A stretch of DNA of 64,000 bases, taken from Archaeoglobus sp. GTDB lineage: Archaea > Halobacteriota > Archaeoglobi > Archaeoglobales > Archaeoglobaceae. The position numbers and the translations under genes were made by a program. The DNA is taken from assembly GCA_017656505.1 (NCBI GenBank), contig JACDNU010000005.1, forward strand, positions 14,739-78,738, read 5' to 3'. Positions 2,280 through 39,959 of this stretch are shown in pieces. How positions within the stretch are numbered: position 1 is the first letter of the stretch; each line of letters opens with the position of its first letter. Under the pieces are notes generated by a model. It searched no databases and was not told where the DNA came from. It saw only the letters and a program-made list of their open reading frames with translations.

Positions 2280-3584
2280 TCATTTTAACTCATCGAAGGC
2301 CTTCTTTTGCTTGTACTTGGATATTGCTATTGCAGCTGCTCCACCACCGCCGATGAGAACTGCGATTACAGCACCAATAAGCACGAGTCTATCCCTCTGC
2401 TCGAAGAAGAATGGCTCGGGAGTAGGAGTTGGTGTGGGGGTTGGTGTGGGGGTGGGAGTTGGAGTTTCCTTCGCCTCGTCAATCTTCTTTCTGAGCTCAG
2501 CTATCAGCGAGTTTGCCTGCATGGTAAGGCTTGCGGTCTCATTTATGATGTTGTTTGATCTTTTTATGACATCATCAAACTTGTTCTTCTCAAGGTAATC
2601 AGCGGTTTTATCGTTTTTATCAATTAATGTTGTGTACTTGCTTTTGAGAGTTATGAGCTGGAATTCGTAGCTCGAAGTTGGTATTCCTTCATTCTTGGCC
2701 TCCTGAATCGTGTAGTCGAATTGTACTAAAGTAACTGAGAGCTTTTCAAGTTCTTCCCCAGCTTTTTCATAAATAAAGTTCGCCTTAGCTTTTGATAGCT
2801 CGAAAGCAGCTTTATCAAGCAATTCTTCAACATTCTTCAACTTCTCGTCTGAATCTATGTACTTTCCATCTTTGTAGTAATTCTCCGCAAGGGTTATGTT
2901 ATCCCTTGCCTTTTCCAAATAGTCTTTTGCATCAACCGTTACAGCACCCTCTTCCTCGAGCATAGTTGCGTTATCGCTTAAACTCTGGTATCTCTTCTTA
3001 ACCTCATCAAGATCCTTTGTGAATTGGTTGAGATTCAAGACGCGGATTTCAATGGATGGTAAGACGTTGTCGTCTGCATCAGAGACCTCAATCCAAAGTG
3101 CTTTCACGGTTTCAAGCCGTTTTTCGACAGAGGGGACTGTCCCTTTCACCTCAACCTCTATCTCATCAACCCCTCCCTGCGATCCCGTATCGCCTATGTG
3201 GAAGGACATCTTTATTGTCCCATCAAGGAGTTCACAAGAGTCCTCAGGATTCTGGCATCTGCCATTCAGATACTGATGCTGGATTGACGCTCCAGTTGTT
3301 AGAAAAACGGTTGCTCTGAGTGTTACTCCATCGAGAGACGAATAAACGTAGTAATATCTGTCGTCCAGTTTCACCTTCTTATCATCATCTGCTGGAACAA
3401 CGTAATAAAGAAACTCCAGTCTTTCCCCCGGGTTGTAGTATTCCTTCCCAACACCCTGTGGGTTTGGAGGGCCGAAATCCGATGCATTCAGGTGTTCTGC
3501 TGCCAAGGCAGTCGGAATAAGCGGAAACAACGATACGAGAAGCAAAATAATCAGGCAAATGAGTCCGAGCCTTGCAGCCTTCAT
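2280..3584 (-). CDS. secreted surface protein: signal peptide, beta-rich domain, long helical region, (TP)8 linker, C-terminal TM anchor
   Basis: 434 aa. N-terminal hydrophobic signal ending ALAAEH, TPTPTPTPTPTPTPTP linker, C-terminal LVLIGAVIAVLIGGGGAAAIAI followed by a basic tail. Starts 10 bp after the cetZ stop. Confidence 0.75.
   Translation of the reverse strand: MKAARLGLICLIILLLVSLFPLIPTALAAEHLNASDFGPPNPQGVGKEYYNPGERLEFLYYVVPADDDKKVKLDDRYYYVYSSLDGVTLRATVFLTTGASIQHQYLNGRCQNPEDSCELLDGTIKMSFHIGDTGSQGGVDEIEVEVKGTVPSVEKRLETVKALWIEVSDADDNVLPSIEIRVLNLNQFTKDLDEVKKRYQSLSDNATMLEEEGAVTVDAKDYLEKARDNITLAENYYKDGKYIDSDEKLKNVEELLDKAAFELSKAKANFIYEKAGEELEKLSVTLVQFDYTIQEAKNEGIPTSSYEFQLITLKSKYTTLIDKNDKTADYLEKNKFDDVIKRSNNIINETASLTMQANSLIAELRKKIDEAKETPTPTPTPTPTPTPTPEPFFFEQRDRLVLIGAVIAVLIGGGGAAAIAISKYKQKKAFDELK
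2418..2465 (-). repeat. coding hexanucleotide microsatellite encoding (Thr-Pro)x8
   Basis: Plus strand reads cccagtaggagttggtgtgggggttggtgtgggggtgggagttggagt; minus-strand codons alternate ACN/CCN. Confidence 0.9.
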
Positions 3585-30376: not shown

Positions 30377-30817
30377 TCAAAAACATAAAAATGCGGCCGC
30401 CGGGATTTGAACCCGGGTTAGAGGCTCGGGAAGCCCCTGTCCTGCCGCTAGACTACGACCGCTTGTGATGTTATTTTCTCCTTTATGAATATAATGGTTT
30501 CCCTTGAACAATTTCTCTCTTTCCAACCTCTCTATTCTCTCCTCAAGCAGTCTCAACCTCTTTTCAATATCCCCACTTGCCTTTTGTTGCACACTTGTTA
30601 TATCCAGATCCTCACTATCACTGAACACTACTCTTATCTCGTTCTCGCCCTCTTCAAATATGTATGCGTATTTCCCCATCTTGTCTTTTAACTTTACCGG
30701 TAGTCTTATTATTGCCAATTCCGCCCCCTTTCTTGGGCTTATCTTCCCAACCTTTACCCTTCCAATGTACCTTCCCATAGTGTGCACTTGTTGTTCAACA
30801 TATTTAACTATTTCCAA
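30377..30817 (-). CDS. int(N): N-terminal fragment of the partitioned SSV-type integrase; the frame runs through attL into the tRNA gene
   Basis: TTG start at 30817. Sequence reads ...IEKRLRLLEERIERLEREKLFKGNHYIHKGENN-ITSGRSLAAGQGLP, then the tRNA-encoded tail EPLTRVQIPAAAFLCF. The 14 aa encoded by the repeat are identical to those entering int(C). Confidence 0.8.
   Translation of the reverse strand: MEIVKYVEQQVHTMGRYIGRVKVGKISPRKGAELAIIRLPVKLKDKMGKYAYIFEEGENEIRVVFSDSEDLDITSVQQKASGDIEKRLRLLEERIERLEREKLFKGNHYIHKGENNITSGRSLAAGQGLPEPLTRVQIPAAAFLCF
30392..30462 (-). tRNA. tRNA-Gly (anticodon CCC)
   Basis: Hand-folded from the minus strand: GCGGUCG UA GUCU AGCGGCA GGAC A GGGGC UUCCCGA GCCUC UAAC CCGGG UUCAAAU CCCGG CGGCCGC A. 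7-bp acceptor stem with one G-U, canonical T-loop. CCA is not encoded. Confidence 0.9.
30426..30469. repeat. attL: 44-bp direct repeat (tRNA nt 1-37 plus 7 nt of 5' flank)
   Basis: tcgggaagcccctgtcctgccgctagactacgaccgcttgtgat is identical to 39896-39939. Confidence 0.95.
30482..30494 (-). promoter_or_regulatory. element-borne TATA-like box positioned upstream of the intact tRNA-Gly
   Basis: Minus strand reads ttatattcataaa. Its ttatattc core (30487-30494) is separated from tRNA position +1 by 24 nt. It lies inside int(N) coding sequence. Confidence 0.35.
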
Positions 30818-30830
30818 AATCGATTACCCT

Positions 30831-31151
30831 CTACCTGCCCCTAAAAACAAGAAAACTACTCCCAATTAAAAGAACACCAGGAATAATCCACAATATGTGT
30901 GTTGTGATAAATCCACCTACTCCACCTAACAACATTAAAGCGCTAGCAGCCTTGTTGTTCTTGTCTACAATTATGCCACCAATAATACCTAGTATTCCAA
31001 ATATTACTGTTACAATGCCAAATAAAACAAGAAATAATCCACCCGGTGCAAAGATTATTGTACCTACCGCACCAATTAACAATGTAAAAAACCCAATTAA
31101 CACTCCAACAATTCCACCAACAATCCCCAATAATTTTTCAATTCTGCCCAT
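30831..31151 (-). CDS. small 4-TM membrane protein (DUF4064-like), paralog 1
   Basis: 106 aa. GIIGGIIVDKNNKAASALMLLGG aligns with GIIGGAIANRNNKAAGVLMLISG of the 31417-31746 product. Confidence 0.75.
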   Translation of the reverse strand: MGRIEKLLGIVGGIVGVLIGFFTLLIGAVGTIIFAPGGLFLVLFGIVTVIFGILGIIGGIIVDKNNKAASALMLLGGVGGFITTHILWIIPGVLLIGSSFLVFRGR

Positions 31152-31327
31152 GTCCCCAAATATTTTTTAAAGTTTTTTACTTGTCTTCTTACTCAACTAT
31201 CAAAGCTTTCCTTAACTCATTGTTATAATTTTCTACAACCTTACTTGTTTCAATCAATGAAAGTATCTCTTTCACTCTTATCTCATTTTTAACCTCAATT
31301 TCCTTCCCTAACCTACCCTTAAATTTC

Positions 31328-31353
31328 AATACCCCTTGGATCCACAGGCATTC
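31328..31353. promoter_or_regulatory. 26-bp element-internal repeat, copy 1 (operator-like, TGGATCCA palindromic core)
   Basis: aataccccttggatccacaggcattc is identical to 34482-34507. Confidence 0.6.
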
Positions 31354-31416
31354 AAATAATATCCCTTGTTCAATCGTGTTAAGATCTTCTCTTCAATACG
31401 TCCATTTTTATAAGAT

Positions 31417-31746
31417 TTATTTCGATCTGAACGCTAAAGCTCCACCCACAATCAGGAGAATGCCCGGTATTATCCAAAAAGCTGAGACCGCTATAAATCC
31501 CAATATCCCACTGATCAACATTAGAACACCCGCAGCCTTATTGTTTCTATTCGCAATCGCTCCACCAATGATCCCAATCACGCCTAAAATTACAGCTCCA
31601 AAGCCAAGACCTGTTACAGTTTCGGCACCATGTACTCCCAATACCGCTCCAAAACCCCCAACAAACATCGCAAATATACCAATAAGAATTCCGAAGATAC
31701 CACCTATCAATCCTAAAACTAATTCTGCTGTTCTTCCCATATTCAA
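31417..31746 (-). CDS. small 4-TM membrane protein (DUF4064-like), paralog 2
   Basis: 109 aa. See paralog 1. Confidence 0.75.
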   Translation of the reverse strand: MNMGRTAELVLGLIGGIFGILIGIFAMFVGGFGAVLGVHGAETVTGLGFGAVILGVIGIIGGAIANRNNKAAGVLMLISGILGFIAVSAFWIIPGILLIVGGALAFRSK

Positions 31747-31770
31747 ACCTCCTTAAAAATAAAAATTAAA

Positions 31771-33114
31771 CTATATCCATGCCCAACCCTCTGCGAGAAC
31801 ATGGTCATCATCAACGAATCTCACTCTAACACTTGGCATCGTCTCAAAATACTCGTACTCAGACAATTCGATCGTTTTTTTCTCCCCCGGCTCTATAATT
31901 TCTCTAACATATCCAAGATACTCCCAAGAACCTCCACCATATTTTACCTCAACTTTACCAAGATATATTGGCCAGTTTCCCTTATTTGTAGCATAAAATA
32001 TCACTTTTTTGATTACAAACTCCCCAAAAGAAGTACCACCCTCAATTTTTCCACGTTCAATTTCAATTTTCGGCTCCATTTGTTTTAAATGCCCAACTTC
32101 ACCCTTCCATACTGCAATTTGCGACCCAAAGCTTGGGTTATACTTAACAAATATTTTCTGAGCATTTTTCGGTACTTCGAAACCCACAACTAAATTTCTA
32201 TATTCTTTGGGGTATAGCTTGCCACTCCCGGTACTCCAAATCTCTGCATCATATCTTCTTCCTGATTCATCGGTTAACCAAAAGTCTGAAGTACTAATGT
32301 ATTCTTTCTCCGATCCAGTGTTCTCAACTTTTACAGTTGCAACAATGAATACGCTATCCTCCTCAGCCCAACGGTTTCCAAATTCATCAGCAATTACATT
32401 TGTTTTTATAGCTTTGACAGTCACATTCAAGTTGGATGTTTTATAACTCTCCCCTAATTCTAACTCTACTACTTCTTGTTCACTCGGTTTAGGTGTTGGT
32501 GTTCGTGTACCAATTATTTCCGGTTTTATTCTTACTCCAAAATCTTCTTTAGCCTCAATTACTCTCCCATCCGGTAAGTGAACTTTCACGTAAAGTATTC
32601 CAAATTCGTCGTCAGATTCTTTTGCCTTTATATCCTCAAATGGAACTCTTATTCCTGCACTCAGAAACATATTTCCATCTTTCCAGCTCGTTATCATTGC
32701 TTTTCCTTGGTAGATTAGCCTCCCTTTAACGGGTTTGAAATTTTCATATTCTTTAGTATAGATCTCTATGTCTACAGGTAGCGATACCCCTTCAAACATA
32801 ACTGTGTCGTCTTTCTCATCTTTAAGAGTAACATAGACAACAATCCCATCATCTTCAGCATCTTCATCCCAATTTTTCGTAAATGTAGTTATGTGCCCAG
32901 ATTTTGCCGTCTTAAGCAATTTGAGTTGTTTTTCCTTTTCTGAATCAACCATTTGAGTTTTCGAATCTGTTTGAGGGGTGCTAGTTGTTTCTTTTGCGTA
33001 TTTAGGGGGCTCCTTTTCCGCACAACCAGCCAATGCAACCAATAAGAGAACCAAGACAAAAACCACAAACCCCACGCTTATTCTCACAATACCACCCCCC
33101 TTCGACAGGTGCAT
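31771..33114 (-). CDS. secreted lipoprotein-like protein with Ig-like (DUF4352-like) domain(s)
   Basis: 447 aa. Signal peptide with lipobox-like LAGC. Segment VFIVATVKVENTGSEKEYISTSDFWLTDESGRRYD resembles DUF4352. Confidence 0.7.
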   Translation of the reverse strand: MHLSKGGGIVRISVGFVVFVLVLLLVALAGCAEKEPPKYAKETTSTPQTDSKTQMVDSEKEKQLKLLKTAKSGHITTFTKNWDEDAEDDGIVVYVTLKDEKDDTVMFEGVSLPVDIEIYTKEYENFKPVKGRLIYQGKAMITSWKDGNMFLSAGIRVPFEDIKAKESDDEFGILYVKVHLPDGRVIEAKEDFGVRIKPEIIGTRTPTPKPSEQEVVELELGESYKTSNLNVTVKAIKTNVIADEFGNRWAEEDSVFIVATVKVENTGSEKEYISTSDFWLTDESGRRYDAEIWSTGSGKLYPKEYRNLVVGFEVPKNAQKIFVKYNPSFGSQIAVWKGEVGHLKQMEPKIEIERGKIEGGTSFGEFVIKKVIFYATNKGNWPIYLGKVEVKYGGGSWEYLGYVREIIEPGEKKTIELSEYEYFETMPSVRVRFVDDDHVLAEGWAWI

Positions 33115-33235
33115 TTTAGGTTAATTCTATAAAATATAAAGCTTTCTGACAAACAAAATTTATCACCATTATATTTTTCAATCAATCAATCCATTCTTTT
33201 CTAGTCAACTTTGCGCCTTTTTATTCCCCTTTTCT

Positions 33236-33751
33236 CTATTCTATTATTCTCCCATTAATCAATATTGGCAACCTCCAAGTTCCGTAATCTGTTCTCTCCC
33301 AGTAACTATCCAGAACCGCCTCGAAAGTAATCTTGTCCCCTTTAGGGTAGGACGTAAGTTTCTCCTTCTGATCAGGCAGTAATTTAACTACAACTGTACT
33401 TGATGCTGCAACGCCCGTAAACCTCACAATCATCTTGTCCCCTTTTTCTGATACCGAGTCAACCTGACCGCTCCATTTTACGCACTTCCCTTTATATTCC
33501 TTGAACTTCTCTTTCTTCTGCAATGACGTGTACTTACTATAAGGCGAGAACATCTTCCAAAAATCATAAAATTTCAAATCGATGCATTCCATGTTTTCAG
33601 TTGCCGTAGGTGTTGCAGTCTGCGTTTTATTTCCCCCACCAAACAAAATCCCCAACACAATCAAAGCAACAAAAATGTAAACAACATACCCAAACCAACG
33701 CACAATCCTCCTCTTACTCCCTATCAACGGTAATTTCTGCCTTACCCCCAT
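33236..33751 (-). CDS. N-terminally TM-anchored extracytoplasmic protein, unknown function
   Basis: 171 aa. One TM segment (VVYIFVALIVLGILFGG), then a beta-rich domain. Confidence 0.65.
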   Translation of the reverse strand: MGVRQKLPLIGSKRRIVRWFGYVVYIFVALIVLGILFGGGNKTQTATPTATENMECIDLKFYDFWKMFSPYSKYTSLQKKEKFKEYKGKCVKWSGQVDSVSEKGDKMIVRFTGVAASSTVVVKLLPDQKEKLTSYPKGDKITFEAVLDSYWERTDYGTWRLPILINGRIIE

Positions 33752-33772
33752 GACGTATATCTGATTTTTCTG

Positions 33773-33780
33773 TTATATAG
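33773..33780. promoter_or_regulatory. TATA box (ttatatag) in the 61-bp divergent spacer of the element
   Basis: About 25 nt from ATG 33751 (minus-strand gene, leaderless-compatible) and 33 nt from ATG 33813 (plus-strand gene). Confidence 0.4.
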
Positions 33781-33812
33781 TTTTTACCCAACATATTAGT
33801 ATCTAATGTTCA

Positions 33813-34040
33813 ATGTCAATTGTAAGCAAAACAAAACTCGCAATTCTAAAAGAACTATCAAAACAACCACTTCATGGTTATGCTCTTTCTAAAAAGCTCA
33901 ATGTTACCATTTCCTCCGTCTATGCCCACCTTTCTGAACTTGAGGAGTATGGTTTCGTTACCCACCAAACGTCAGATAGGCGCAAACTCTACTCCCTCAC
34001 AACTAAAGGTAAAAAATTGCTTCAATTATTATCAAAATAA
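33813..34040 (+). CDS. small winged-helix regulator (PadR/ArsR-like); only plus-strand gene of the element
   Basis: 75 aa. LAILKELSKQPLHGYALSKKLNVTISSVYAHLSELEEYGFV. Confidence 0.75.
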   Translation: MSIVSKTKLAILKELSKQPLHGYALSKKLNVTISSVYAHLSELEEYGFVTHQTSDRRKLYSLTTKGKKLLQLLSK

Positions 34041-34086
34041 TTTCCCATCCCACTATCCCTTGCTCCTCTCAATTTTATTCACAATG

Positions 34087-34473
34087 CTATTCAACCGGTA
34101 TCCGATTCTCTGGGGATATATCCCACCACTTACTGGGACTTTCGATCTCATAAACTGCTCTTGGGTATAGAGCAACACATACGTACCCGTGGACTGGGCA
34201 GTCATTGCGTATAACAGGTGGGTGAGGGCATATACATTTACCCTCTCTCCTCACAAAAGCGTAGCCAATAAACACTTGGAAAGGCATATCCGGATGGGGA
34301 CCATGAACCTCCCATACCGCTTCCGTATCCATAACTAACCCCCGTTTTTTCAGTCTTCTTTTAATCTTCCTAACTATTTCAACATCGTAATCCAAATCAA
34401 GAAACCCCATCTCAACCACCCCCATCAACTTCTTTATTTTGTGATTTTTTATTTTTTCCATACTCTCTTTCAT
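34087..34473 (-). CDS. hypothetical Cys/His-containing protein of the element
   Basis: 128 aa. GKCICPHPPVIRNDCPVHGYVC. Its ATG lies 9 nt downstream of 26-bp repeat copy 2. Confidence 0.6.
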   Translation of the reverse strand: MKESMEKIKNHKIKKLMGVVEMGFLDLDYDVEIVRKIKRRLKKRGLVMDTEAVWEVHGPHPDMPFQVFIGYAFVRREGKCICPHPPVIRNDCPVHGYVCVALYPRAVYEIESPSKWWDISPENRIPVE

Positions 34474-34481
34474 CCATAATT

Positions 34482-34507
34482 AATACCCCTTGGATCCACA
34501 GGCATTC
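34482..34507. promoter_or_regulatory. 26-bp element-internal repeat, copy 2
   Basis: Identical to 31328-31353. Confidence 0.6.
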
Positions 34508-34518
34508 GATACTTGCAT

Positions 34519-34776
34519 TTACCACACCTGTCCATTCATTCTGAATCTCTTCCCGAAACTTTCAACAACCCACCAGTCAATATTCCCATTCCAGCTTTCC
34601 CCGCCTTGCCTCAATAACAGCATCGCATCAGCAATAAACATCGCATCCCAATCCCTATTCTCTTCCACTGCCTTCTTGAATTCATTATACAACCCGTCCA
34701 GCCTACCCTCTTTTTTCTTTATCGCCTTCTCCATTCTCTCTTTCCCGCCTTGAACTAACTCTTTTATTTTCACCAT
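34519..34776 (-). CDS. hypothetical protein of the element
   Basis: 85 aa. Its start overlaps the TerL-like stop by 7 nt. Confidence 0.55.
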   Translation of the reverse strand: MVKIKELVQGGKERMEKAIKKKEGRLDGLYNEFKKAVEENRDWDAMFIADAMLLLRQGGESWNGNIDWWVVESFGKRFRMNGQVW

Positions 34777-36248
34777 AAAGCCCCAGCCCCAACAAGCTCA
34801 TCTAAATTCATAAAATCAGCAACCGAGCACCTACCACTATTGAAGCCATACAGACTCAGAGCCAGAGCGTCAACAATGTCGCTCTCAAAATTTCTCAGCT
34901 TTATTACATCTTTCCCGCCATCTGCCCTATATTTCACCTTGAAAGCGTTAAATTGTTGCCTTAGCCGTTCATCTCTCAATAGAAATAGTCCACCCTCCTC
35001 GATCTGATATTTCAAATTGTCATACAAATTAAATCTCTCTTTTCTCTTGCCAAAATTAAATCCAACCACGCTAATACCCTTATCCTCTAATCTTTCTTTT
35101 AGTACGTCATGCACCCCACTACCAAGCCCGGTCTCGTCTATCACTACTTTACTCGCCTTGAATTTCTTAACCAAGTTCTCCAGCCAGCCAAGCTGCCAAC
35201 TTAATCCTTTTTTTGAAACAGTTCGGTAATCTATCATGTAATAGCTCCCTTCTAATCGACCCAAAACCACCACCGCAGTCTTTGAACTTCCATGCCTCGC
35301 AATATCGCAGCCCAGCACTATCTCGTCAAAGTAATTCAAACTCTTGTTATCATAGCTCTTCTTTTCTACCACCATCTTCTCTCTTACCCTTGCCATATCA
35401 AAAAAGTCATCTTCTGAAATATCTCTCCATTGGCAATTATACCAAATGTCAAATTCGTCCTCACTTAATTGCTTTCTCACAAAATCAACTTCATCCTTGC
35501 TCATTATTCCCTCTTTCACAGCATCTCGCCAAGTTATCCGGTATTTTTCAAAATCGCCACTGTTCCAAGCATCCCAAAGGTAGGAATCTTTAATGTGCGG
35601 CGTTCCAATCGTAAATAACAAGTTTTTACCTTCTTTTTTCGTCATCAGCATTCTTAAAATTCTCTGTTTGATTACATCTCTTGGTGTCGAACCCGCCTCG
35701 TCAACAATAACCACATCCGCACCGTATCCCAAAAGTCCCTCAGGGTTGGTTGCACTCAAACATAAAATCTTACTCCCGTTCTTAAGCTCTATCCGCCCAT
35801 TATGCCTCTGGATTCTTCTAACCGCTCTCCATAATTTCTTGTTTCTCCATAAGTAGCCATCAATCCTCTCAAAAATCCCCTCAATCGCCTGTCTGTATAT
35901 TGGTGCAATTATCACAATCTGCGTTGCTGGTCTCAATAAAGCAAGCAATAGCCCTAACACACTAACAAGTTCAGTCTTGCCCCCCCTTGTGCAACTTATA
36001 ATACAATATTTTCCACTTCCACTCCCCAAGCCAAAAGCATCCCTCAAAACTGTTTCTGAAATCTGTCGCTGGTATTTCGTCAATTCTAATGGCTGTCCGT
36101 CTGGTCGTATCAGATTGGCAGATATCCACGAATTCAAAATCCTCTCAATCCGAGCCTCACTAAGTCGAATCGCTTTCATTTTCTCAATCAATATTTCTCT
36201 TTTATTCAATCTCTTCAAATAAATCGGGTATGCCATCGTCATCCTCAT
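34770..36248 (-). CDS. terminase large subunit-like ATPase/nuclease
   Basis: 492 aa. Walker A CTRGGKT, Walker B VVIVDEAG, TIGTP coupling-like motif. RNaseH-like nuclease acidic motifs LGCDIARHGSSKTAVVV, VVIDETGLG, SDIVDALALS. True start may be an internal Met. Confidence 0.75.
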   Translation of the reverse strand: MRMTMAYPIYLKRLNKREILIEKMKAIRLSEARIERILNSWISANLIRPDGQPLELTKYQRQISETVLRDAFGLGSGSGKYCIISCTRGGKTELVSVLGLLLALLRPATQIVIIAPIYRQAIEGIFERIDGYLWRNKKLWRAVRRIQRHNGRIELKNGSKILCLSATNPEGLLGYGADVVIVDEAGSTPRDVIKQRILRMLMTKKEGKNLLFTIGTPHIKDSYLWDAWNSGDFEKYRITWRDAVKEGIMSKDEVDFVRKQLSEDEFDIWYNCQWRDISEDDFFDMARVREKMVVEKKSYDNKSLNYFDEIVLGCDIARHGSSKTAVVVLGRLEGSYYMIDYRTVSKKGLSWQLGWLENLVKKFKASKVVIDETGLGSGVHDVLKERLEDKGISVVGFNFGKRKERFNLYDNLKYQIEEGGLFLLRDERLRQQFNAFKVKYRADGGKDVIKLRNFESDIVDALALSLYGFNSGRCSVADFMNLDELVGAGALW

Positions 36249-36384
36249 TATTTTTCAAATCTACTCTCAACTCGCTCAATATTCGATTGTAAGTCTCAAT
36301 TGCTCTTATGTCCCCATTCTCAACATGCTCCTCTAAAGCCTCCAGCAATTTTCTTCTCTCCTTTACTATTTCATCAATATTCAA
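36202..36384 (-). CDS. small acidic helical protein
   Basis: 60 aa. 4-nt start/stop overlap with the upstream RHH gene. Sits where phages place a small terminase subunit, but there is no sequence support for that role. Confidence 0.45.
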   Translation of the reverse strand: MNIDEIVKERRKLLEALEEHVENGDIRAIETYNRILSELRVDLKNNEDDDGIPDLFEEIE

Positions 36385-36716
36385 TTTTGAGCCTCCTCGC
36401 TCAGCAGTTTTTTTATTAGCACCTGAATCATCTTAGATCGTGATATGCCGATTTCTCCACATAGATCTCCGAAACGCTCCCAAACATCTCGCTCCACAAA
36501 GAATGTAGTCTTTCTCCAATTACCCCCTTTAGCAAAAACTTCGCCGTCCTCGCCACACATCTCCAAAAAACTCGATATCGTAGCCCGGATTACCTCGCTC
36601 TTCTCAAGTTTATTCGAAATTGCAAACCGATCAAGCTCATCAGCAAGTTCTGGATCGATCGACATACTCACAAGTTTCGCATCTTTCAGCTTTTTCAGTC
36701 TGCCCATTTGTATCAC
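36381..36716 (-). CDS. tandem ribbon-helix-helix (CopG-like) DNA-binding protein
   Basis: 111 aa. Two RHH-like units (KLVSMSIDPELADELDRFAI...VIRATISSFL and KTTFFVERDVWERFGDLCG...MIQVLIKKLL). Confidence 0.65.
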   Translation of the reverse strand: MIQMGRLKKLKDAKLVSMSIDPELADELDRFAISNKLEKSEVIRATISSFLEMCGEDGEVFAKGGNWRKTTFFVERDVWERFGDLCGEIGISRSKMIQVLIKKLLSEEAQN

Positions 36717-38257
36717 CCCACCCTCACCAAATTAAACTCATCTCGCACTTTCTTTTTCTTGCCTGCCGAACCATTAGCATCCCCTACTAAAACCGCAATC
36801 TCACGCCTCAATCGCTCCTTTTTTGCTTCTGCGCGTTGAATTCGATCAACCTCGCCAATCGTCATCTCTCCCTGTAAGGCCTTTTGTAACACTTCTTTAA
36901 TCGTCATATCCTTCTTCGCTTCCAACGCTCGCAACTCTTTCTCCAATCTTCTTATTTTGCCGATATTATCCAACGTTTTAATAATCTCACTCATATCTGC
37001 TCCTTTTAACGCAGCTTTAGCCAAATCTCTGCTCTTACCGTATTTCTGTGCTAATCTAACCTCCTTTCGAACGCCTTGAGCCATCTTTTCAAGTCTTTTG
37101 CCCACTTTATCCAATCGACTTATCTCATCTTGGTATAACGAAACCGTTTCAATCAACTGTTTGACGGCGTCCGCCAGCATGGCCACTTTTGAAAGCAGCT
37201 CATCAACTTTCTCATTTAAAAAACTCTCATTCAAATTCTCACCCCCCATAACTTTTCCAACAAGGCCAAAACGGCCACTTTCATCTAAAACAAACATCTT
37301 CCAACCCATCTTCTTACTGAACTCGCTTACTATACTCCCAACATTTCTTCCAATATTCTTGCCAATGACCTTAACTAAGTCTAAAACTTTCCTGCAACCC
37401 TTCAATATCGATTTAAAGCCTGATTTCACCCGTGATTGACCACCACCCTGATCTTGGAATTCCAAATCATCATCAATACACAACTCAAAAGCCTCAACCT
37501 CAATTAGCGCATCTATTAATGCAAATATATCGTTCTGATTGCCTTTTTCCTGCTTTGCTCGCCTCAATGCAAAGAGTATGTTTCTTATCGGATACCCAAG
37601 CAACTTATTAAGCAAAAGCCCAATCTTCAAAATAGCTCGTTCAAGATATTCACGCCAATTCTTTCTCGTAACTTTCTTATGACCGAGTGATAGGTAATTA
37701 ATGTCTGCCTCTTCCAGCAATTCCTTAGCGCCCTTGGTTCTTCTTAAATCCACACTATGGTGCAATATCTTTATCCCATCTTTCCCATATTTAGAAACTG
37801 CCTTTTCAAACCTTGGAATCACTCGTTTCTCTACAACTGTACGGTCAATCTGTCCGCTGCCCCAGTTACGGGATTCTATGTAAATTGGTGTTCCGTTATA
37901 TTCGCACCTTACATCAACTCCATTCCCAATCTCCAGCCCAACATGCTCAATATTGTCCAAACCCAAATACTGGCAAGCTTGCTCATCCAAAAGTTCCTGA
38001 TGCAACCCATCTTTGATATCGTGAGCGCTTACTTTAACCCCCAATTTTTTTGCGTAATTTCGAACAGTATTAGGATCAACAACAACCCCAAAGAGCTTAT
38101 CTAGCTCTCTAGCCGCCCCAGTATAGCCAAATTTATTAATTAGTTCTCTAATTAGTTTTTTTAATTCATTTTTTGGAAGGGGAATGTCATCTAACTTACT
38201 CGGTCTGCCCCGCCCTTCTTTTTTCCTCTTTCTATTATTCGATATTGTATCGACCAT
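36713..38257 (-). CDS. multi-domain protein: AT-hook, HTH, possible PD-(D/E)xK-like core, long C-terminal coiled coil
   Basis: ATG at 38257 (the track TTG at 38299 is an extension). KKEGRGRPSKL AT-hook, GYTGAARELDKLFG..NTVRNYAKKLG HTH, GVDVRCEYNGTPIYIESRNW. About 200 aa of heptad-rich sequence. Confidence 0.65.
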   Translation of the reverse strand: MVDTISNNRKRKKEGRGRPSKLDDIPLPKNELKKLIRELINKFGYTGAARELDKLFGVVVDPNTVRNYAKKLGVKVSAHDIKDGLHQELLDEQACQYLGLDNIEHVGLEIGNGVDVRCEYNGTPIYIESRNWGSGQIDRTVVEKRVIPRFEKAVSKYGKDGIKILHHSVDLRRTKGAKELLEEADINYLSLGHKKVTRKNWREYLERAILKIGLLLNKLLGYPIRNILFALRRAKQEKGNQNDIFALIDALIEVEAFELCIDDDLEFQDQGGGQSRVKSGFKSILKGCRKVLDLVKVIGKNIGRNVGSIVSEFSKKMGWKMFVLDESGRFGLVGKVMGGENLNESFLNEKVDELLSKVAMLADAVKQLIETVSLYQDEISRLDKVGKRLEKMAQGVRKEVRLAQKYGKSRDLAKAALKGADMSEIIKTLDNIGKIRRLEKELRALEAKKDMTIKEVLQKALQGEMTIGEVDRIQRAEAKKERLRREIAVLVGDANGSAGKKKKVRDEFNLVRVG

Positions 38258-38365
38258 AATATCAACTCCACTAACCAGTGCAACGGTAGTCAGCCCCAAA
38301 ATAGCCTCCTGCGGGGCCCACTCCTCCTAAACGTTCACTCTATTCTACATCAACTTTTATATTTC

Positions 38366-38375
38366 GATATATATC
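38366..38375. promoter_or_regulatory. 10-bp perfect AT-rich palindrome gatatatatc upstream of the element's long operon (TATA box and/or unwinding element)
   Basis: Read directly. Lies 67 nt upstream of TTG 38299 and 109 nt upstream of ATG 38257. Confidence 0.35.
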
Positions 38376-38656
38376 TGTTACTAATATAGTATCAGTTGAG
38401 GCGATATTTAAGTTTTTCTCGGTTGTGCATGCTCCATTTTCCAAAATCGGTTTACAGGTTATTTATCTGCCAGTTGCAAAATATATAAACGTTTCTATTT
38501 CTCAAATTACATTGTCAAATAGCATCCCTATTTTTCTTACAATGTAAAGTAAAAGATTATCAAAATTTTACAAAAATCCAAACCCATCTTTTTATTTGTA
38601 TTACATTCATCAATAATTTCCCTCCGCCCAATACCTACAGTATACTAAGCCCTCAG

Positions 38657-38946
38657 TCGGTATTCACGCCTCCACATTATCGTAAATATACCAACCATCC
38701 CCATCCTCCCATGCCCCTCTTATTATATCGGTATTTTGCCCACCTGATCTCTTCTGTCGGTATTGTTTTCCCGAATTCACGCCGTTATCTTTCAGTATAT
38801 GGTTTCGCCGGTGTTCAGCTTGCCCAATTACTTCCACAATCCAATATAAGATTTTATCTTCCTGTTCCATAATTATTCCGGTATCTGTTTAGCTTGCCGC
38901 ATTTCCGATTTCCCCGCACTCCCACCATCTCCTCAATTTCGGTATT
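38657..38946. repeat. iteron-like array: five same-orientation copies of (T/C)CGGTAT(T/C)
   Basis: TCGGTATT at 38657, 38728, 38757 and 38939; CCGGTATC at 38878. The copies fall in different reading frames of the two weak minus-strand ORFs here. Confidence 0.6.
38664..38870 (-). CDS. questionable small ORF inside the iteron region
   Basis: 68 aa (MEQEDKILYWIVEVIGQAEH...). Composition is protein-like, but the ORF is riddled with the DNA-level repeat. Confidence 0.3.
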   Translation of the reverse strand: MEQEDKILYWIVEVIGQAEHRRNHILKDNGVNSGKQYRQKRSGGQNTDIIRGAWEDGDGWYIYDNVEA

Positions 38947-39108
38947 TTTCAGCATCCCAGCCCCCCAAACCTCAATTTTCTTATATATACGGCGCCGGGC
39001 AAAGTAACAAAATAGATAGTAAGTACAATAGAGTGGGTGGTGGGTGTTAATAATAAAACAAATCATTAAGGCTAAACGTACTTTACTTACTAACAATACA
39101 TGAAAAAA

Positions 39109-39939
39109 TTAATTGATGATGGTTTGTAACGTTGGTGCAACTTTTTTGTATTCCCGTAATGCGTTGTTCATGAGCTCAAGATAGTGTGTTGCTAGGGTTG
39201 ATTTAGTAGAGTGTCCCATCAAAAATTCAATTGTTGGTTGTGTAACGCCAAGCTGTAACAGTTTATTTGCGAACCAGTTCCTGCAATGTTTTGGTTTCAT
39301 TTTATGTGTCCAGTTCTTGTAGAGTATGCGCTCACTAATGTAAATTTGATCTAATTGCTTTGCAAAGCTTGCTGGCATGAATAGCTTGTTTGCTCGCTTA
39401 TTGTGTCTGATCCAGTTCATATCATAAAATGCCACGCCATCAACAAAGTGCAGCTTGCTCGGTTCAAATTCTGTTAGCACCTTTATACCCTCTATAACCC
39501 TGCATCCTGAGTACAGCATTAGCTTGATCAGTGTTTTGACTCTATGATCCTTTATTGCAGCAAGGGTTTCTTTAACCTCGGTATCGGTTGGCAGGTATAC
39601 GTCAAAGCCAGTCCTTTTCAATTTAAGAACGCTCTTCAGTTCAGCAGCTTGTTCTTTAGTAACGATCCCCTTCTGCATGCAGTAATTGATTAAGTTCCTT
39701 AGACTCCGAGCGTACCAGTTCCAACTTTTTACGTGCTTGGCAATCTCAAGAATGTCATCAATATTTCTAATTACGGTACCACTCAAATACCGGTTCAAAT
39801 CGTTAATGTAATGGCGTGCAGTACCCTTTTCTACTCTGGCATGTATCCACTTTACGAAATCTTGCTTTACAGCATCGTAATCAATTAAAACAGCATCGGG
39901 AAGCCCCTGTCCTGCCGCTAGACTACGACCGCTTGTGAT
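39109..39939 (-). CDS. int(C): catalytic C-terminal portion of the partitioned SSV-type tyrosine integrase (no start codon of its own upstream of attR)
   Basis: The frame is open from the stop at about 39955 through attR: KTITSGRSLAAGQGLP-DAVLIDYDAVKQDFVKWIHARVEKGTARHYINDL-NRYLSG... Candidate catalytic residues lie in YSGCRVIEG, KHCRNWF, LMGHS and ATHYL. Confidence 0.8.
   Translation of the reverse strand: MTSGRSLAAGQGLPDAVLIDYDAVKQDFVKWIHARVEKGTARHYINDLNRYLSGTVIRNIDDILEIAKHVKSWNWYARSLRNLINYCMQKGIVTKEQAAELKSVLKLKRTGFDVYLPTDTEVKETLAAIKDHRVKTLIKLMLYSGCRVIEGIKVLTEFEPSKLHFVDGVAFYDMNWIRHNKRANKLFMPASFAKQLDQIYISERILYKNWTHKMKPKHCRNWFANKLLQLGVTQPTIEFLMGHSTKSTLATHYLELMNNALREYKKVAPTLQTIIN
39896..39939. 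repeat. attR: 44-bp direct repeat containing a 5' half-copy of tRNA-Gly (39896-39932)
   Basis: Identical to 30426-30469. Not followed by the tRNA 3' half. Confidence 0.95.
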
Positions 39940-39959
39940 TGTTTTCTTAGGTATCTATG

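Follow-up and report, generated by a model that had tools for sequence, protein, structure and literature searches.

The window analysed here is a 64-kb stretch of a metagenome-assembled genome (MAG) of Archaeoglobus sp., and within it lies an integrated element that carries a gene for a large terminase subunit (TerL) and no recognisable capsid or portal gene. A first-pass annotation of the DNA had marked positions 34087-38257 as holding this gene, within a 9.5 kb element with an SSV-type integrase. The marked interval does cover the core operon, but the whole element spans 30426-39939. Its ends are set by a perfect 44-nt direct repeat, the spacing of which (9470) gives an element of 9,470 bp, and both the size and the integrase type proposed at first pass were borne out. 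The features at the borders are:

30426-30469, no strand: attL, the left copy of the 44-nt attachment (att) repeat; the copies are 100% identical, and this one overlaps the 5′ 37 nt of tRNA-Gly(CCC)
39896-39939, no strand: attR, the right copy, located as a direct-repeat match
30392-30462, minus strand: tRNA-Gly(CCC), the gene into which the element has integrated, made whole again by the left att copy (ARAGORN; Rfam tRNA, 61.5 bits)
30470-30817, minus strand: Int(N), N-terminal part of the split SSV-type integrase; the open reading frame (ORF) 30377-30817 runs on through the att site and the tRNA
39109-39895, minus strand: Int(C), catalytic C-terminal part of the integrase (PF16795, 1.3e-33; phrog_5127, 3.3e-41), its frame open up to the att site

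Joining the ends in silico at one repeat copy yields a 9,470-bp circle in which the integrase is an unbroken frame of 394 codons. The same operation restores the integrase frame of a related element, L004 (this and similar labels denote retrieved related loci), and homologous Int(N) fragments were found at the far end of related elements. Because restoration of a split integrase is the defining behaviour of SSV-type ('suicidal') integrases, the borders are certain, and the window element is a mobile element with an integrase of this type that has integrated into a tRNA gene. All of its genes are on the minus strand except that for a PadR regulator. The order is Int(C), a spacer of ~800 nt, a protein here called X, a ribbon-helix-helix (RHH) protein, a 60-aa acidic protein, TerL, p85 and p128, followed by the PadR gene (+), a 171-aa protein, a 447-aa lipoprotein, two DUF4064-like proteins and Int(N). 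As the first pass had stated, the genes about TerL form a tightly coupled operon, with overlaps of 4 nt at 36713/36716, 4 nt at 36381/36384 and 7 nt at 34770/34776. The gene at its centre is:

34770-36248, minus strand: TerL, 492 aa, with an N-terminal ASCE ATPase and a C-terminal RNase H-like nuclease (Pfam; PHROGs; AlphaFold2 (AF2) and Foldseek)

The TerL layout first read from this ORF holds, and all of the motifs listed for it are present (CTRGGKT, VVIVDEAG, TIGTP, LGCDIARHG..TAVVV, VVIDETGLG and SDIVDALALS). Three Pfam families match above their curated cut-offs, namely Terminase_6N (PF03237, 1.5e-9), Terminase_6C (PF17289, 7.3e-8) and TerL_ATPase (PF03354, 2.6e-6), and the match in PHROGs is phrog_2, 'terminase large subunit' (1.6e-32). 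A profile of the family searched against the PDB found the TerL ATPase of Thermus phage P74-26 (1.2e-8) and the TerL nuclease domains of P74-26 and G20c. An AF2 model built from 19 sequences had a predicted local distance difference test (pLDDT) score of 81.8; the top 40 PDB structures retrieved with it by Foldseek were all TerL (E-values 9e-20 to 1e-16), among them T4 gp17 (8.9e-20), HK97 (2e-19), D6E and Sf6, whilst the best predicted viral structure in BFVD was the TerL of Halogranum tailed virus 1 (HGTV-1; 2.7e-31). With tblastn, terminases annotated in 512 phage records were matched; identity was 23-26% among the matches listed and below 60% in every one. Profiles and modelled structure agree in placing ORF 34770-36248 inside the terminase family, as a genuine two-domain large terminase. 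TerL and the protein neighbouring it upstream match the NCBI entries H0Z28_02670 and H0Z28_02685 at 100% identity.

Across the 19 TerL sequences the TRxGK[ST], VDEA and TP motifs are invariant, as are the acidic residues of the nuclease (D315, D371, D457 and D460). A conserved C-terminal tail extends past the nuclease domain in the family; this region of characterised TerLs has been implicated in portal docking. The ratio of nonsynonymous to synonymous substitution (dN/dS) is 0.06-0.22 where synonymous sites are unsaturated, and in most TerL pairs those sites are saturated whilst protein identity is still above 50%. These substitution patterns indicate that TerL is under strong purifying selection. 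One related locus (L008, 9953-11369) has its TerL coding sequence broken up over three or four ORFs that lie in different frames, which may reflect decay of this copy or else a faulty assembly.

A search of 5.8 billion proteins returned ~15 related TerL clusters at 51-83% identity, and four more at 33-35%. The ~15 clusters come only from Archaeoglobales MAGs or metagenome contigs, and every named one is from an Archaeoglobus or other Archaeoglobales MAG. When one genome per GTDB species was scanned, the TerL family appeared in just two uncultured MAGs, and for this reason it seems to be absent from the cultured Archaeoglobales of Badel et al. 2020 (PMC7253208). Genomic context was retrieved for nine TerL-family proteins. 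Wherever the flank suffices the same small element is found, in the order Int, X, RHH, small acidic protein, TerL, p85-like protein, variable cargo and IntN; the homologues are not fragments of large proviruses. The att-to-att sizes are 5,520 bp (L013), 7,357 bp (L011), 8,687 bp (L019) and 9,470 bp (window), and the integration targets are at least four tRNA genes: tRNA-Gly(CCC), Gly(TCC), Thr(GGT) and Pro(TGG). On this comparison the window element belongs to a hitherto undescribed family of small integrative elements (5.5-9.5 kb) in Archaeoglobales, of which no account was found in the literature searched. A 15-nt terminal overlap in L004 was considered as a sign of a free circular form and set aside, since a break of this kind is expected from a k=31 assembly (k assumed) at a 45-nt att repeat.

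The first pass had seen no capsid, portal, protease or replicase gene in the element. Searches of its ORFs against Pfam, PHROGs and PADLOC likewise gave no family match for capsid, portal, protease, tail or replicase proteins, and no structural or replicase match was obtained for 20 proteins from related elements (Pfam, PHROGs, PADLOC). The capsid-less architecture is conserved in at least nine independent elements. Moreover, the smallest of them, L013, contains Int, X, a coiled-coil protein, three small proteins, TerL and a p85-like protein, with no free coding space. Taken together, these comparisons indicate that capsid and portal genes are missing family-wide, rather than just undetected in one copy, although a highly divergent structural protein might in principle hide among the small core proteins, for which no models were built. 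Nor can their loss be recent, because TerL pairs are synonymously saturated at more than 50% protein identity.

The nearest TerLs outside the family (33-36% identity) are on IMG/VR viral contigs of 25-60 kb. Among the products encoded there are a family B-like DNA polymerase, a ParB-like nuclease, glycosyltransferases, a nucleotide-sugar epimerase and a tail-fibre-associated RNA ligase, and a further TerL relative is found on a short contig beside QueD, FolE and ParB-N genes. The contigs are presumably ordinary large double-stranded DNA viruses, the capsid and portal genes of which lie outside the stretches retrieved, and the TerL of the element appears from its sequence relatives to derive from a viral terminase. 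On the nearest viral contigs TerL is preceded by a protein of 126-167 aa with a probable N-terminal helix-turn-helix (HTH) and a helical C-terminus (L016, 9484-9987; L017, 9510-9962; L006, 3751-4131), which is likely to be a small terminase. A 91-aa RHH-looking protein follows TerL in L016 (11359-11634), so that small DNA-binding genes flank TerL in these viruses too.

The other genes of the core operon, with p128 downstream, are:

36713-38299, minus strand: protein X, with an AT-hook-like motif, an HTH, a PD-(D/E)xK-like nuclease domain and a C-terminal coiled coil (alignment, AF2, Foldseek)
36381-36716, minus strand: tandem RHH DNA-binding protein, 111 aa (RHH_1, 3.3e-6, residues 16-52; Arc-like phrog, residues 71-108)
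36202-36384, minus strand: 60-aa acidic helical protein, a core gene that overlaps the TerL start; in the members examined, homologues of 60-93 aa are encoded immediately upstream of TerL
34519-34776, minus strand: p85, an 85-aa helical core protein; its start and the TerL stop share 7 nt, and in the members examined homologues of 84-111 aa are encoded downstream of TerL
34087-34473, minus strand: p128, a 128-aa protein with several Cys and His, present in one subgroup only (no Pfam, PHROGs or PADLOC match)

The three proteins encoded upstream of TerL are as first described, and the structure prediction proposed at first pass was made for X as well as for TerL. From its first in-frame start X has 528 aa; the likely start is the ATG at 38257, which gives the 514 aa that NCBI annotates. 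Its AT-hook-like motif is GRGRP. Among eight homologues E102, D129, E142 and N145 are invariant and position 144 is K or R. In the AF2 model residues 100-230 form an alpha-beta-beta-beta-alpha-beta core, with pLDDT of 62-90 by 10-residue block, and the best Foldseek matches are AF1548 (probability 0.96), archaeal Hjc, the MspJI nuclease domain and RecU, all of which we take to belong to the PD-(D/E)xK nuclease superfamily. The Pfam family Mrr_cat_2 matches two of the eight members, with an E-value of 0.045 at best. Because the structural E-values are weak (0.06-1.8), X is regarded as a probable PD-(D/E)xK nuclease. As the sole portal-sized protein of unassigned function X had also been a candidate for a portal or capsid protein, an assignment rejected on the model, which shows an HTH, a nuclease-like domain and a coiled coil. 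The coiled coil is encoded by a separate gene in some members. The HTH-nuclease part has 7 cluster representatives among 1.84 billion, and X is for this reason considered specific to the TerL-element family.

Arc/CopG-like phrogs span both halves of the RHH protein, and other members have single-RHH homologues of 45-63 aa. The p85 homologues directly follow TerL in the members examined except L024, where a 136-aa OB-fold ORF lies between. No Pfam, PHROGs or PADLOC family matches p85 and no relatives of it were detected outside the family; X and the small core proteins are essentially without relatives elsewhere. The position of p128 is taken in other members by an unrelated protein of ~125 aa.

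Between p128 and Int(N) lies the cargo region:

33813-34040, plus strand: PadR/ArsR-type winged-helix regulator, 75 aa (Pfam PadR, 1.8e-11)
33236-33751, minus strand: p171, 171 aa, cargo, with an N-terminal membrane anchor and an OB-like (tRNA_anti-like) domain (phrog_8545; PF12869)
31771-33114, minus strand: predicted DUF4352 lipoprotein, 447 aa, cargo (PF11611, 4e-15), its N-terminal hydrophobic signal ending in LAGC
31417-31746, minus strand: DUF4064-like multi-pass membrane protein, 109 aa, cargo, 52% identical to a DUF4064 protein of L003/L004
30831-31151, minus strand: DUF4064-like multi-pass membrane protein, 106 aa, cargo, 36% identical to DUF4064 (PF13273) proteins of L003/L004

The p171 protein matches phrog_8545, 'superinfection exclusion Sie-like' (2.6e-7), and PF12869 at 2.4e-4, which is below the curated cut-off. 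Cargo varies after the p85-like gene, most members having the PadR regulator, the 171-aa anchored protein, DUF4064 and DUF4352. Seven of the nine elements share a p171-type anchored protein, a DUF4064 membrane protein and a DUF4352 lipoprotein, the latter with homologues of 289-447 aa; this membrane cassette is absent from L013 (5.5 kb) and from the sequenced part of L009, which keep TerL and the core. In L009/L010 the cargo position (L009, 11673-20830) is held by a 370-aa protein, a type I restriction-modification system (HsdM, HsdS, HsdR) and a 520-aa PLD-like protein that in L009 matches the PADLOC candidate defence family PDC-S05. Next to the L009 element is a type III CRISPR-Cas locus that includes Csx1 and Csx3. 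As no right border could be located for the element, the genes at its cargo position are only presumed to be inside it. We infer from these matches that the cassette of membrane proteins and lipoproteins would serve as host-protective cargo resembling superinfection-exclusion genes. The PadR gene is divergent from the membrane-protein operon across a 62-nt gap, and its product may be either the cassette's own repressor or an element-wide switch.

The conservation of these genes is out of step with that of TerL. The PadR regulator is 76-96% identical across elements (L001, L003, L007, L008 and L011), the TerLs of which are 57-83% identical. Between the window and L001, p128, PadR and p171 are 95-100% identical, as against 83% for TerL, 50% for X and 29% for the integrase. 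Such a mosaic of identities indicates that modules are exchanged between elements. The same comparison bears on the one long stretch of the element that is largely free of genes:

38300-39108, minus strand: integrase-X spacer, ~800 nt, rich in A and T; ATACCG(A/G) occurs in it five times on the same strand, and a GC-rich box, TTTGCCCGGCGCC, adjoins a TATA-like run

The spacer also holds two small ORFs of doubtful status (68 and 80 aa), and the corresponding spacers of L011, L004 and L019 have a comparable GC box. The spacer is ~95% identical to that of L001 (3829-4682) over ~700 nt, with ~240 nt fully identical. Strong selection on a non-coding element was considered as the cause and rejected; recent module exchange fits better, because p128, PadR and p171 are also nearly identical between the two elements. 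The spacer could be a cis-acting region, with a packaging site (pac), an origin of replication (ori) or operators as candidates.

The interpretation we favour, and to which we would give about an even chance, is that the element is satellite-like and packs itself into the procapsids of a head-tailed helper virus. Of the three explanations put forward at first pass this is the one favoured by the evidence, whilst those of a minimal virus and of an exapted TerL are weakened. It is preferred because the capsid-less architecture is conserved, because TerL is under purifying selection with its motifs intact and has viral relatives, and because the cargo is of a defence or exclusion type. On infection by the helper, or on its induction, the element would excise and the integrase gene would be restored. 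The RHH protein, the 60-93 aa acidic protein and/or X would mark a site on the element DNA, probably in the integrase-X spacer, and the element TerL would dock on the portal of the helper's empty procapsids, cut element concatemers and pump them in. Packaging would be by the headful, probably with several element copies per head, since 5.5-9.5 kb is much smaller than typical tailed-virus genomes (25-60 kb in the related contigs). The element would then spread in helper virions and divert capsids from the helper. Helper dependence, the identity of the DNA-recognising proteins, the packaging mode and the interference with the helper are what we infer here; helpers are plausible because head-tailed viruses have been documented in hyperthermophilic vent archaea (PMC12934983). 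The estimate is held near one half because helper dependence, the pac site and the small terminase are presumptive and a replication module is missing.

Several results weigh against a satellite. No helicase, primase, Rep or polymerase domain was detected in any member by Pfam and PHROGs, whereas bacterial satellites usually have a replication module. Neither a helper virus nor a pac or cos site was identified. Outside the element, the 64-kb window is made up of housekeeping genes: 19 of the 20 larger ORFs outside the element belong to housekeeping families (Pfam, E <= 1e-5) and one (2280-3584) is unmatched. In IMG/VR the TerL profile matched nothing closer than TerLs of 36% identity, located in large viral contigs; close family members were absent, and the small acidic protein had no match. 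No close relative of the element TerL was found inside a complete virus, and for this reason no helper can be named. The first pass had noted that the RHH and 60-aa proteins occupy the place of a small terminase. This assignment was not upheld beyond position: a profile-profile comparison (hhalign) of the 60-93 aa family with the small-terminase-like proteins of the nearest viral contigs gave a non-significant probability of 4.6%, and both proteins are at best position-based guesses for the role. Finally, a satellite that brings only TerL has, to our knowledge, no characterised precedent; the only well-described satellites known to us that encode their own TerL, the capsid-forming phage-inducible chromosomal islands (cf-PICIs), also encode capsid and portal.

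Much of this evidence would suit an integrative plasmid the virus-derived TerL of which has been exapted for a capsid-free task, such as concatemer cutting, resolution or processing together with X, or another ATP-driven DNA transaction. No helper, portal or capsid was found, the family was not found in IMG/VR, X and the small core proteins stand essentially alone, and without a replicase the enzymes of the element come down to TerL, X and the integrase. However, both TerL activities retain the sequence features of packaging enzymes, down to the coupling motif and the C-terminal tail, we know of no capsid-independent TerL function, and the small DNA-binding genes that overlap the TerL start copy the layout of a tailed-virus terminase operon; exaptation is thus rather unlikely. 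A wider proposition, that TerL acts without an HK97-type capsid and portal at all, whether by loading vesicles or a particle of the element's own membrane proteins or as a capsid-free translocase-nuclease in replication or resolution, is one to which we would assign only a small probability. Anti-viral interference with packaging in which the element does not transfer itself is also unlikely, a little more so than exaptation: TerL and X would hijack or poison procapsids or terminase, or cut viral DNA, protecting the host population whilst the element itself spreads seldom or by another route. Other protective cargo is present in the family (the Sie-like cassette, and in L009 the restriction-modification system and PLD-like candidate beside type III CRISPR-Cas), and bacterial defence that targets terminase and packaging has been documented. 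PADLOC, however, has no model matching TerL, X or p85, and the element is clearly mobile, with intact att sites, a restorable integrase, four tRNA targets in the family and module exchange. The idea moreover overlaps with the satellite model, since satellites also interfere with their helpers.

The remaining two explanations fare worse in the family comparison. An autonomous minimal virus would make a membrane-vesicle or pleomorphic particle from the DUF4064 proteins and the DUF4352 lipoprotein, with its genome loaded by TerL. The set shared by seven of the nine elements (the anchored 171-aa, DUF4064 and DUF4352 proteins) gives this some substance and superficially recalls the membrane protein, spike and NTPase of pleolipoviruses. 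Yet TerL and the core persist without the cassette in L013 and in what was sequenced of L009; the cassette is served by a divergent PadR regulator of its own and travels as a unit in the manner of an accessory, and its 171-aa protein matches a superinfection-exclusion family. In addition, all characterised TerLs, as far as is known, act on a portal vertex. A minimal virus is accordingly very unlikely. As for the remnant of a decayed head-tailed provirus that has lost its structural genes, the fragmented TerL of L008 would fit, as would the splitting of the integrase by SSV-type integration, which favours decay of the integrated copy (PMC7253208). This explanation is effectively refuted by the family comparison: the compact gene set recurs in at least nine elements with TerL identity down to 51% and synonymous sites saturated, dN/dS is well below 1, the att repeats are exact and the integrase frame restorable, four integration targets are used, and no fragments of structural genes were found.

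If the element is a satellite, its closest parallels are the PICIs and cf-PICIs, which are likewise small and integrative, with a terminal integrase gene, virus-derived packaging genes, accessory or defence cargo and a dependence on helper parts that would have its presumed counterpart here. However, cf-PICIs have genes of their own for capsid, portal, protease and head-tail connectors, and tails are all that they take from the helper, whereas the element family has TerL without any of these. The element further differs in that no primase/replicase module or recognisable small terminase was found, and in its archaeal host and SSV-type integrase with the att site inside the gene; sequence homology with cf-PICIs was detected only for TerL and the integrase. 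Bacterial satellites described to date contribute a small terminase, factors that modify capsid size, or a complete capsid set. A satellite that brings TerL only and takes the whole capsid and tail from its helper would thus represent a new strategy, and these elements would be the first candidates in Archaea to encode their own packaging motor.

Satellites that have been described or proposed in archaea are pSSVx, pSSVi, the haloarchaeal SRCE and the Asgard NMV2S (10.1101/2025.02.15.638363; 10.64898/2026.08.12.739948). All are archaeal elements with an incomplete virion module and presumably travel in helper particles, but none is described as encoding TerL, which sets the present element apart. 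In pSSVx, pSSVi and SRCE, which exploit spindle-shaped viruses, a plasmid replicon is combined with an AAA+ ATPase, a spindle-virus capsid protein or both. NMV2S, a proposed satellite of an Asgard siphovirus, has a helicase-primase, an Arc-like protein and a Cas4-like nuclease, with no terminase mentioned; if the element is a satellite, NMV2S would be the only other one proposed for a head-tailed virus of archaea. Elements of the pT26-2/SSV type with 'suicidal' integrases, from Thermococcales and Archaeoglobales, share the integrase class, the att site inside the gene and the use of tRNA targets in hyperthermophilic Euryarchaeota, and the main text describing them does not mention the word 'terminase' (Badel et al. 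2020, PMC7253208). With the TerLs of Caudoviricetes (Halogranum tailed virus 1, P74-26/G20c, HK97 and T4 gp17) the element protein shares fold, domain order, catalytic motifs and the upstream overlapping small DNA-binding genes. It is, however, only 23-26% identical to those of isolated viruses and 33-36% to the nearest metagenomic ones, and the next gene encodes an 85-aa protein, not a portal.

Whatever the role of TerL, the family shows that small mobile elements with what is probably protective cargo exist in hyperthermophilic archaea. It also offers a handle for finding head-tailed viruses of Archaeoglobales, by way of portals that match the element TerL. Should TerL prove to work capsid-free, it would overturn the view of terminases as strictly capsid-portal enzymes and be the first terminase shown outside that context.

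Some smaller observations concern the surroundings and the non-coding DNA. The ORF at 2280-3584 (minus strand, 434 aa), for which Pfam gave no match, adjoins a gene for a CetZ tubulin-like protein. No CRISPR array was found in the 64-kb window, and the tRNA was the sole non-coding RNA match in Rfam at a permissive threshold. A scan for promoters and terminators gave counts at chance level; its models are of bacterial type and archaeal promoters are outside their reach. Integration in the window is at the 5′ end or half of tRNA-Gly(CCC), and 5′-end tRNA integration is an exception among Archaeoglobales elements, AveSNP6_IE1 being an example (PMC7253208). The reconstituted tRNA gene now has element DNA, the Int(N) fragment, upstream of it, and its former upstream region begins 9.5 kb away at 39940. 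Within the element an exact 26-nt repeat is found at 34482-34507 and 31328-31353 (minus strand GAATGCCTGTGGATCCAAGGGGTATT) and contains the palindrome TGGATCCA. One copy is between the p85 stop and the 128-aa gene, and the other between the two DUF4064 genes. The first copy is kept at the same place in L001, L002 and L007, and the repeat may be an operator or a site of module exchange.

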